From the NCBI RefSeq assembly GCF_057098645.1, contig NZ_CM169472.1: a stretch of 64,000 bases of DNA. The stretch is one strand, 5' to 3'. Position numbers: made by a program. Shown one piece after another: positions 21,001 through 24,000 of the stretch. Position 1 is the stretch's first letter, and the number at the start of each line of letters is the position of its first letter.

Positions 21001-24000
21001 GAAGCTGTCAAAGGAAAAATGCGACCGGGTTAATGCCATCGAACGTGACAAGGCGCTGGCATGGGTGGAGAAAAACATCAAAGTGCCGCTGACCGAACCC
21101 CAGAAAGCGGGGATCGCGTCATTCTGTCCGTATAACATTGGCCCCGGTAAGTGTTTCCCGTCGACGTTTTATAAACGAATTAATGCAGGTGATCGAAAAG
21201 GTGCCTGTGAGGCGATTCGCTGGTGGATTAAGGACGGTGGCAGAGACTGCCGTATCCGCTCAAATAATTGCTACGGTCAGGTATCCCGGCGAGATCAGGA
21301 AAGTGCGCTGGCGTGCTGGGGTATCGACAGATAAGCAGAATATTTTGCTTAAAAATGACGTTGGCCAACGCGGGCAGATAACACGAAATCCTGCGAACTG
21401 GCAAAACCCAAGTGAATAAAAGTAAAAACCCCGTTTGTTGGTTGCAAACGGGGTTTTATGTTTATGGCAGTAAGCTATGGGAGGCTGCCTTGATTGATTT
21501 TAGCAAACTGATTAGGGAGTTGCGACTCATGATTAGTCAATTACCAAACTGGAAATTTTTGCTGGTCTGGAGCATCCCTTTTTTATGGGTAGTATCCCAG
21601 TGAATTGTGGCAATTAAGGGGTAGCTATGTCAGACAAACTCATAATGCTGGCGAAGATCCTCTGTGTAATCGTCGGCATTTCATTTTCACTAATGCTGGT
21701 TGCTCTTTTTCTTTCCATGGGCTGGATGATGTTGTCTTCGTCGGGGCTGCTGGGGTGAGCATAAACCGAATGCTTTCCGCGTTTACCGTTATTCTGCTGG
21801 TGGTCTGTGGTGCGCTTAGTCTGGGGCTGAATCATTACCGCGATAACGCCATCACCTACAAAGCGCAGCGCGATAAAAAAGCCAGTGAGCTGGATCTGGC
21901 AAACGCAACCATTACTGATATGCAGGTGCGCCAGCGCGATGTTGCTGCGCTCGATGCAAAATACTCGAGGGAATTAGCCGATGCGAGAGCTGAAAATGAA
22001 ACTCTGCGTGCTGATGTTGCCGCTGGTCGTAAGCGCCTGCGGATCAACGCCACCTGCCCCGGTACCGTGCGTGAAGCCACCGGCACCTCCGGCGTGGGCA
22101 ATGATGCCGCCGTCGAACTCTCTCCGGTTGCTGGACGAAACGTTCTCGGTATCAGAGACGGAATCATCAGCGACCAGGCAGCATTGAGAATGCTTCAGGA
22201 ATATATCCGCACTCAGTGTATTAACTAGTATTTTTGTTATTCGGAGAATGCATGAAGAAATTATTGGTAACCGTAAAGCCTTTTCAGGGAACAATTCCGT
22301 TCCGTATTTTGCAGCGTGGTCGTGTTCTTGTTGAAGGTTCGTTCAGTGGTAAATGTACGCAATTACACTCCCGGACCTTTCAGGTGAATGCCACGAATGA
22401 AGAGCTAACCGTTGAGTGTACGATGAATGCCGCTAAATGCCGCATGGTATCCGCTGCATTACAGCCAGTGTGTTGAGCGACCTTATTATTCATGCGCGGT
22501 ATTGTCGCCGTATTCCTGCATTAACAGAGACCGCAGCCCGACCGGGAGAATCCTCTGCGCGAGTGTGCGGGGATAATCAAAAACGATACACACCGGGGTT
22601 TACCGCGTTAACGGAGCGCGGCGTTGTCCCCTCATGGTCGCTGGTCCGGTGCGATGGTGGAAGAAGCCGGATGTTTATCACTATTAATTGATAACACAGA
22701 AATGGATTCATTGATTTTCAGCACGTTTTTGTATTCGTATTATTGAACATCTGTTTATTTTACTTTTAACATATTGATAATAAAAAGAGCTGTAAATCTT
22801 TAGATGAGTCGATTTTGTCCGGGGAAGTTCAAATGGATTTTATGCTGACGGTTTCTGGTGTGGTTATCCTGTCCATTGCTTATACTGCAGATAAATATGG
22901 CTGCCATTTGTTATCACGTATTGGCGCTTATTGCTCGTTGATGCTGATTTTCTCGTCGCTTTTTTTTGAGTAAGTTATATTAATTATAACAAATAATTTT
23001 CTGTGTTTTTTCAGGCTATCCCGTCAGACGGGAAGCCTGTACTGCCGGGGGACGAATGGAAAACTGATGTGTCCGGTAACTGTGTGTTCTGTGAACACCA
23101 TGTTACTTAATTATGTAATTCATACCCGAACGCTCTGTTGACAGCCTTCTTCTGCAGGCTTCAATAACCCACGCTGAAAAGTTACCGGAACCTTTATGTT
23201 CAAGGGCGATATTGATCTGTTCAATCATGTGATTGGGGAAACGGATATTGCGGATTGTGGTTCTGCGGGTCCGGTTTTTCGATGACATTTTCTTTCCTCT
23301 GGTGACAAGCTATATGGAGAGGATTTTACATGGCTGTGCTTCGTACGTTACCGGGCAGAATCAAAACTCTGAACACCCGGCGGGTGAATGTCCTGAAGGG
23401 TGAACAGCGTCGGGTCAGTGGTAGTGCCCGGGTTTCCCTCAAGCGTCGTATCTGGCTGAGGGATGCCGGACAGTGCTGTCTCTGTGGGCGTGTGGTTGAC
23501 CTTTGTGACAGTGAACTTGAGCACCGCATTGCACTTCAGTTCGGTGGTGGTAATGAGGAGACGAATCTCTGGACGCTCTGTACCGAATGCCATCGACAAA
23601 AGTCTGCTCGTGAAGCGGCGAGTGGTATGCCAGACCCGACGCTGCCGGAGGTGTCCGGAGGTAGTGGCAGAGCGGACGACATCATCGGACTGTAACCCGA
23701 CCCGGGGGGGTATCATCCGGCGTAAAAAAAGATCGCTTTGGACACCGCGCCCCCTCTCATGCAGAGAAAAAATCCCGTTTCAGGCCAGTTAACATGTTAA
23801 CTGGCTGTTCGGCCTTTTTTCTGTTTTTATCTTTATTATTCAGTTTGTTGTGCGAAAAAAATGTTAACAGGCTTTTTCAGCAAATGTTAACCAGGCAGCA
23901 GTTAACATTTGCGGCATGAGACGCCGGGAAAAATGGGCTGAACCATACCCGGCTGAGTGCGTTCTGGACCCGGGAGGAGGCTGTGCTGACAACGCAAAAA

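Follow-up and report, generated by a model that had tools for sequence, protein, structure and literature searches.

A widespread conserved tract, probably a structured RNA, between the lysis and packaging genes of Escherichia coli lambdoid prophages

The stretch of DNA analysed here, referred to as the window, comprises 64,000 nucleotides of contig NZ_CM169472.1 (NCBI RefSeq assembly GCF_057098645.1) and carries a lambda-like (lambdoid) prophage of Escherichia coli. Positions 22230-23330 of the window form the gap between the lysis genes Rz/Rz1 and an HNH-terS-terL packaging module, and this segment contains a conserved non-coding module of about 180 nt (22493-22672, plus strand; hereafter the tract), which we propose as a putative structured RNA, oriented as the late transcript is. 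Annotation together with domain searches gave the order holin, an AT-rich insert with a minus-strand open reading frame (ORF), lysozyme, Rz/Rz1, the segment, HNH, terS and terL, which puts the segment where the lysis cassette meets the packaging module, in agreement with the first-pass annotation of this DNA. The lysis cassette ends with the i-spanin gene Rz (21770-22228, plus strand; Pfam Phage_lysis, E = 2.3e-39; 'lysis protein' in RefSeq), in which the o-spanin gene Rz1 is embedded (21981-22187, plus strand; an ORF with a lipobox and a proline-rich tail). The small gene orf74 (22252-22476, plus strand) lies between Rz and the tract. On the other side, the tract is followed by a spacer that is AT-rich in composition (22673-22832, 28% GC), by the putative gene orf46 (22833-22973, plus strand; RefSeq hypothetical WP_000347013) and by a gene of the ylcI/ynfO family (23103-23288, minus strand). 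The packaging module begins with an HNH endonuclease gene (23330-23695, plus strand; Pfam HNH, E = 5.2e-6; phrog_589), divergent from the ylcI/ynfO gene across a gap of 41 bp, and continues with terS (23983-24546, plus strand; Terminase_2, PF03592, E = 1.7e-8; RefSeq annotation) and, directly after it, terL (24543-26204, plus strand; RefSeq annotation). All three small ORFs of the segment had been listed in the first-pass annotation and were confirmed at the coordinates given there. RefSeq annotates each of them in the chromosomal prophage of E. coli 2011C-4251, to which the 1.1-kb query is 100% identical (99.4% to phage PPyecE_EH1910). The strong AT bias described earlier is real but moderate: the GC content of the segment is 43.2%, compared to 49.8% for the window, which corresponds to the 16th percentile among 1.1-kb windows, and an AT core at 22673-23102 reaches 36.3% (8th percentile). 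The tract itself has a GC content of 59.4%.

In BLAST searches with the 1.1-kb query, positions 263-442, that is the tract, recurred on their own and unannotated. Its boundaries are sharp, the flanks on the left and on the right are of several different kinds, and its length across variants is 164-181 nt. Among the loci with a detected Rz gene, the tract was located downstream of Rz and on the same strand in all cases (128/128), at distances from about 10 nt to 2.8 kb that fall into discrete classes; in related phages it directly follows Rz or comes after bor, Rha, KilA-N or orf74. Of 5426 complete E. coli genomes, 4142 carry it, at 10,798 places that nearly all lack an annotation; the same scan recorded 691 places on plasmids. 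In phage lambda it occupies positions 46868-47033 of NC_001416, between bor and lambdap78, and in the DLP12 prophage of E. coli K-12 positions 579009-579175 of NC_000913.3, between borD and ybcV, with no annotated feature at either place. The tract occurs also in phi21, mEp460, PA2 and 933W-like phages, and is absent from the right end of HK97. Among 100,044 species genomes the exact core of the tract was present only in Escherichia or in contaminated metagenome-assembled genomes, a search that did not extend to divergent relatives by covariance model. The tract is thus a constant, non-coding and autonomous unit around which gene cassettes vary.

The one plasmid copy that we inspected (pVE-V10-F_1; positions 2501-2595 of locus L262) is truncated to the 5' half of the tract and lies beside iss, a homologue of bor. 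It is accompanied by fragments of Rz/Rz1 and by insertion sequence elements, and is a fossil lambdoid late region on a large plasmid. A query consisting of lambda bor plus the tract gave matches on plasmids that ended before the tract.

The tract belongs to no described RNA family. A cmscan search of Rfam 15 at E <= 1 with the tracts of the window, lambda, PA2, mEp460 and phi21 gave no match, an exact-sequence search of the literature with the tract core was likewise without match, and in a 2025 review of phage small RNAs (sRNAs) neither terminase nor bor nor the late region is mentioned. For a comparative analysis, copies were collected by scanning IMG/VR for an exact 27-nt core and metagenomes for a pattern from another part of the tract, and from named phages. 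The resulting set comprises 107 distinct sequences, of which 69 were retrieved by the exact core.

The proposed fold, read on the plus strand, consists of a 5' domain, a 3' domain and a candidate H-type pseudoknot. The 5' domain is formed by the helices P1 (22499-22505/22583-22589), P2 (22511-22521/22565-22575), P3 (22532-22536/22555-22559) and P4 (22537-22539/22544-22546), with the sequence AAUCAAAA at J(P2/P1), and the 3' domain by P5 (22595-22597/22629-22631) and P6 (22603-22607/22617-22621). The pseudoknot would be made of S1 (22637-22641/22651-22655) and S2 (22645-22649/22667-22671), and its geometry fits the H-type, with 5 bp in S1, 3 nt in L1, 5 bp in S2, 1 nt in L2 and 11 nt in an A-rich L3. 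The long-range helices P1 and P2 were recovered both by RNAalifold and, independently, by single-sequence minimum free energy (MFE) folds of the window, lambda and mEp460 variants, while P3-P6 and S1/S2 were added by inspection.

Several features of the variation in the tract are in agreement with this model. In an alignment of 69 sequences, 98.0% of the helix cells were paired, compared to 95.5% in shuffled alignments (0/500 reached the observed value) and 35-63% when the partners were slid. P2 occurs in at least eight paired versions, including the exchange of C27-G75 for G27-C75 in lambda and DLP12, which were not selected via the core pattern; S1 occurs in at least five different fully paired versions (P = 0.04), and the stem of the P6 hairpin is replaced by several unrelated complementary sequences. 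One-sided changes in helices are nearly all from C-G to U-G or from U-A to U-G, which points to the plus strand and to RNA. The most variable columns of the tract fall in predicted loops.

The main rival explanation takes the tract for a passive linker, conserved where two modules meet, similar among lambdoid phages through recent common ancestry and frequent homologous recombination and without any function as RNA. Its position exactly at the point where flanks are exchanged would suit such a linker. The linker predicts, however, that substitutions are blind to pairing, and we compared the observed changes with a null that preserves phylogeny, in which substitutions mapped by the Fitch method on a neighbour-joining tree were moved to other columns that had the identical ancestral base. 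Over the whole structure, 79% of the changed helix cells stayed paired, compared to 36±5% under the null (0/300), and for P1-P4 alone the values were 89% and 35±8% (0/300). Controls of three kinds, all drawn from the real alignment, gave 38-41% pairing with a maximum of 0.69; they used consensus-complementary column pairs chosen at random outside the helices, pairs of this sort from any place, and the helix columns with new partners. The effect is also specific to the strand, with 73% of the same pairs maintained when read as plus and 45% when read as minus. Neither this asymmetry nor the placing of variable columns in loops and the swapping of the P6 stem is what a passive linker would lead one to expect, and we regard it as unlikely, although it is the alternative to be taken most seriously.

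A number of observations weigh against a conserved RNA fold, and some of them are those on which the linker explanation can draw. No single pair was significant among 15,532 column pairs under the phylogeny-aware null, so that we rely on the statistics of the whole structure. The best of the proposed pairs, 145-163, had E = 4.9, or about 0.01 when only the 44 proposed pairs are considered, with S1 having been chosen after the data were seen; indeed S1 and S2 were both proposed after covariation had been noticed. S2 alone is not significant (P = 0.14), and mismatched variants exist. Folding energies are weak as well and cannot serve as evidence by themselves. The MFE z-score of the tract was +0.08 on the plus and +0.76 on the minus strand, no better than shuffles, that of a 224-nt stretch was about 0 on both strands, and those of sub-domains were only -0.2 to -2.6 (5' domain, -0.6 to -2.6). 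The first-pass annotation had spoken of a GC-structured tract at 22480-22680. A GC-rich and sharply bounded module is indeed there, whereas the single sequence folds no better than shuffled sequence, and it is from the comparative evidence alone that the word structured draws its justification. In some lineages parts of the fold are lost through deletions, the phi21 type being without the 5' strand of S1 and the type represented by locus L014 without P6, and in the lambda type P1, P3 and S1 contain mismatches. Retrieval by the exact core (69/107) freezes the 3' strands of P1 and P2, and the divergence is shallow, with 433 inferred substitutions in sequences that all come from Escherichia-type phages. 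Finally, a table of PMC10695390 gives each of the three genes annotated in the bor-p79 region of lambda as previously known to be non-essential.

Weighing these points, we favour an explanation in which the segment is a moron junction, cos lies elsewhere, and the embedded module of about 180 nt has been selected to keep an RNA fold, and we give it a probability of roughly 0.5. The substitutions of the tract appear to preserve a plus-strand fold with an irregular hairpin of about 100 nt (P1-P4), a P5/P6 domain and a candidate pseudoknot, and any function is putative. That the tract acts in some way at the RNA level seems to us slightly better supported than the contrary. The suggestion of the first-pass annotation that the segment might be a small regulatory locus came closer to the mark than its suggestion of cos, the feature that stands out being an RNA-like module that had not been read as such. 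The tract would represent an older, autonomous module embedded among accessory genes. Since it is co-oriented with Rz and the terminase genes in every locus with a detected Rz gene, it would be transcribed within the Q-dependent late transcript. There, where the lysis cassette ends on its 3' side, it might act in cis on processing or stability, offering a structured entry site for an RNase or a barrier to 3'-exonucleases, and might thereby allow the mRNA of the lysis genes and the long morphogenetic mRNA downstream to have separate fates. It is the constant place after the lysis cassette and the hairpin-plus-pseudoknot shape that suggest such a role; the mechanism as such is derived from position only, which speaks against giving it much weight, and we offer it as a tentative proposal that is rather unlikely to be correct in its details. 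A broader formulation, that the tract founds a new structured-RNA family with an irregular hairpin and an H-type pseudoknot, which most lambdoid phages of E. coli, lambda itself included, carry in their late operon and which controls in cis how the late transcript is processed, stabilised or read through at the boundary of lysis and morphogenesis, appears possible while falling short of probable. More speculatively still, the tract could be a sensor RNA that binds a ligand or a protein and gates the expression of structural genes.

Homology searches with the small ORFs, as recommended earlier, gave a different outcome for each of them, none out of the ordinary. orf74 encodes 74 amino acids, is preceded by GGAG 7 nt upstream of its start, and is a real, conserved gene whose product is confidently modelled as a small beta-sandwich protein. 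The hydrophobic 46-aa product of orf46 had no match in Pfam, PHROG or NCBIfam, and its only relatives are 13 near-identical sequences, all from E. coli, with a variation too low for a test of coding constraint. We consider orf46 an orphan confined to E. coli and an unproven, putative gene for a membrane peptide. The minus-strand gene belongs by sequence to the YlcI/YnfO (DUF3950) family; its product of 61 aa passes the cut-offs of PF13132 (70.8 bits vs 25) and NF041551 (35.1 bits vs 30) and matches phrog_949 with E = 2.2e-31. In related prophages a gene of this family is also found just upstream of the packaging genes.

The first-pass annotation had described this gene as ribbon-helix-helix (RHH)-like, which is reasonable, with the RHH fold itself unproven. 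An AlphaFold2 model of YlcI, of low confidence (pLDDT 66, pTM 0.29), has a strand at about residues 12-15 and helices at 19-31 and 39-59, i.e. a beta-alpha-alpha order, and hhalign places the strand and helix A of the Arc repressor on residues 12-32 in the RHH register, a weak alignment (E = 0.029). Like the RHH repressors Arc, Mnt and CopG, YlcI is short, and its strand 'xIRFP' followed by 'GNFSAWV' resembles the RHH pattern. Unlike for these repressors, only DUF3950 scores in Pfam, and sequence and fold searches of the PDB gave no useful match. YlcI is probably a small DNA-binding protein, for which an RHH fold is plausible. Residues 12-27 of YlcI (RNIRFPNHMIEQINIA; gene at 23106-23288, minus strand) also resemble sigma-70 region 3.0 (RTIRIPVHMIETINK; PDB 7ye1_F), with a profile E-value of 1.2 that is not significant, a likeness nonetheless remarkable in a protein this short. 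In another locus (L261, 4001-4390; protein P0279, and also P0291) a DUF3950 N-terminal domain is fused to a Terminase_2-like helix-turn-helix (HTH) domain that resembles the N-terminus of terS in the window; the fusion gene sits in an islet with integrase and primase genes that looks like a phage satellite. Such a fusion may be a sign that DUF3950 proteins work on DNA in the vicinity of packaging sites.

The DNA around orf46 contains several elements that could be regulatory. The spacer has a palindrome, TTATCA-N8-TGATAA (22675-22694), at the 3' edge of the tract. A sigma-70-like site is found at 22715-22743 (plus strand; 9/12 matches), the number of such sites being not above the expectation from shuffles. 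The sequence ATTGATAA recurs at 22773-22780, about 85 bp downstream of the palindrome, and both lie upstream of orf46 and look like operators. Between the convergent 3' ends of orf46 and ylcI, a strong hairpin can be read from the sequence at 23012-23039 (CAGGCT...AGCCTG with an inner CCCG/CGGG stem); it is preceded by a T6 run and has no U-run after it on either strand, and no canonical intrinsic terminator was called in the segment. A further idea is that orf46 and ylcI form a small self-contained regulatory or toxin-antitoxin-like locus, with a membrane-peptide toxin and an RHH regulator. The small size and hydrophobicity of the orf46 product, the RHH-like pattern of YlcI, the AT-rich, palindrome-bearing region upstream of orf46 and the co-occurrence of both genes in some prophages (VR50) would fit. 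However, DLP12 and many other phages have ylcI but not orf46, no divergent homologues of orf46 were found, and the two are convergent with no antisense RNA, overlap or operon structure visible. Neither protein matched a toxin-antitoxin family in Pfam, PHROG or NCBIfam, a survey that did not include the PADLOC defence library. The orf46 product is hydrophobic as type I toxin peptides are, but neither a family nor divergent homologues nor an antisense partner could be found for it. We therefore think a locus of this kind improbable.

An action of the tract as DNA, as a regulatory region or protein-binding site for minus-strand neighbours expressed in the lysogen (bor, lambdap78/ybcV or ylcI), is suggested by the place of the tract in lambda, DLP12, phi21 and PA2, where the start codon of bor follows at 115-180 bp, the tract being upstream of it, and by the truncated copy that travels with iss on plasmids. 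Against this, many loci, among them those of the window, EC69 and VR50, have the tract and no bor, and pairs that are G-U invariably or in the majority (U29-G73, U22-G80 and G145-U163), together with the asymmetry between plus and minus, point to an RNA strand and not to duplex DNA. Such a role of the DNA seems to us quite improbable as well.

The first-pass annotation had further named the GC tract and the AT-rich DNA as candidates for cos or the site of packaging initiation. The position between lysis and packaging modules would be suitable, and lambda-type phages do have cos in the same interval (phi21 cosQ annotation). The segment is, however, separated from terS by the HNH gene, no repeat or palindrome array of the terS type was found within 22230-23330 in the repeat listing, and an array of this kind lies outside the segment at 23784-23912. 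Of the six copies of ATGTTAAC in the window, in which about 1.9 would be expected, five are located at 23788-23908, between the stop of HNH (23695) and the start of terS (23983), and within the array are a perfect palindrome of 22 bp (23784-23805) and an inverted repeat with 12/12 matches (23880-23891/23901-23912). We consider it a probable terS-recognition/cos region. Furthermore, the tract adjoins at least four unrelated packaging types (HNH/Terminase_2, lambda Nu1/A-type, DUF1441-type and 933W-type) and can therefore not be a terminase-specific site, its position follows Rz and not the terminase genes, and in lambda it is 1.5 kb away from cos. A function of the segment as cos is thus very unlikely. 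The ends of fragmentary phage records were also considered as clues to cos and dismissed as assembly breaks; related GenBank records are prophage-derived or permuted.

An analogy for the packaging end of the prophage is the HNH-dependent cos packaging of HK97. There HNH is the last and terS the first gene of the linear genome, and cos lies after HNH and 50 bp before terS (gp74 - cos - gp1 terS - gp2 terL). The same layout of HNH last and terS first is given in the table of cos phages in PMC3592412, the abstract of which states that HNH genes adjoin cos and terminase genes. The window shares the order HNH, an intergenic region of about 290-370 bp, terS and terL, while no sequence similarity to HK97 was detectable in its HNH, its terS (a Terminase_2 protein) or the intergenic DNA. 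The placement is for this reason argued from gene order and the motif array, a dependence on analogy that counts against it, and by this analogy cos of the window prophage would most probably be the HNH-terS intergenic region, about 0.5 kb to the right of the segment.

That the tract encodes a small protein, the 84-aa ORF at 22437-22691 whose translation matches phrog_6954 'Rz-like spanin' (E = 2e-13) and which has counterparts annotated over the tract in PA2, mEp460 and others, we reject as extremely unlikely, because the annotated ORFs differ in start, length and frame, have no Pfam match, and are broken by indels not restricted to multiples of three (variants differ by 1, 3, 8, 12 and 16 nt), with no frame open in all variants (25/69 for the best) and stops in every frame in most of them. 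Judging from these sequences, PHROG 6954 is most simply understood as a family of translations of conserved non-coding DNA of the tract. The label 'Rz-like spanin' over the tract in PA2 (gp73; locus L005, 1518-1721) is apparently an artefact of annotation.

No temperate phages have been studied better than lambda and its relatives, and still we found no function described for the non-coding DNA of the interval between Rz and cos. The tract is an unannotated, very widespread and probably structured RNA element. Three quarters of complete E. coli genomes have it, frequently as more than one copy, and it occurs also in lambda, phi21, Shiga-toxin phages of the 933W type and DLP12 of K-12, and is missing from Rfam and from annotation except for spurious 'Rz-like spanin' ORFs. 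If it is a functional RNA, it would provide a testable handle on how a late transcript of 25 kb is partitioned between lysis and virion genes, for which the existing genetics of lambda could be used, and it would have a bearing on the timing of lysis and the release of Shiga-toxin phages. Even a tract without function would leave the annotation of PHROG 6954 corrected and the likely cos region of this prophage type placed.

Among the known systems to which the segment can be compared are first the sRNAs of lambdoid prophages. The anti-sRNAs AgvB and AsxR (PMC4104026) and the Pas sRNAs (bioRxiv 10.64898/2026.05.13.724894) belong to the same prophage family and share with the tract conserved positions and multiple copies per genome. 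AgvB and AsxR are 51-60 nt long and occupy a moron site just downstream of PR' (PMC4104026); PasA, PasC and PasD adjoin the genes for Q, esterase and holin, and PasB is found inside the structural genes (bioRxiv 10.64898/2026.05.13.724894). None of them is described between Rz and the terminase genes, and the Rfam models of AgvB and AsxR gave no match. Being located elsewhere in prophages, the Pas sRNAs and the sRNAs from Hfq-CRAC in enterohaemorrhagic E. coli (EHEC) were both rejected as identities of the tract.

The segment as a whole is an ordinary mosaic junction of the moron type (for the concept see Juhala et al. 2000, as cited in PMC4104026) that carries accessory cargo. It occupies the same place between Rz and the packaging genes as the lambdoid moron regions, such as the Rz-cos interval of lambda with bor, lambdap78 and lambdap79, and is similarly AT-rich and variable in content (bor, Rha, KilA-N, TonB-like, orf74, orf46), with some genes on the opposite strand. 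In related phages the presence or absence of orf74 and of the orf46 segment between the same flanking genes is independent of one another, and the orf46 segment shows the deviant composition by which morons are recognised, with 28-40% GC compared to 50% for the window. Unlike a moron, the tract is not a gene cassette but a constant non-coding unit. Two further small ORFs lie in the neighbouring lysis cassette. A 104-aa ORF (20369-20683, minus strand; shorter in RefSeq, 20369-20641, WP_000138558) is contained in the AT-rich insert (36-41% GC) that separates the holin gene from that of lysozyme, and is a further moron. A 43-aa, strongly hydrophobic ORF (21627-21758, plus strand; WP_001280927) is found immediately 5' of Rz; in PPyecE_EH1910 the gap between lysozyme and Rz is filled by an antirepressor gene in its place.

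Finally, phage transcripts contain cis-acting structured RNAs, among them the RNase III processing hairpins of T7, the sib retroregulator of lambda and the put RNAs of HK022. The tract differs from these in having no similarity to them in sequence or in Rfam, in its additional candidate pseudoknot domain and in its location in the late and not the early operon. Like them, it is non-coding and strand-specific, lies within a long polycistronic transcript and is predicted to form a long irregular hairpin with internal loops, and its position at the end of a block of genes suggests that it, too, might serve in the control of processing or stability.

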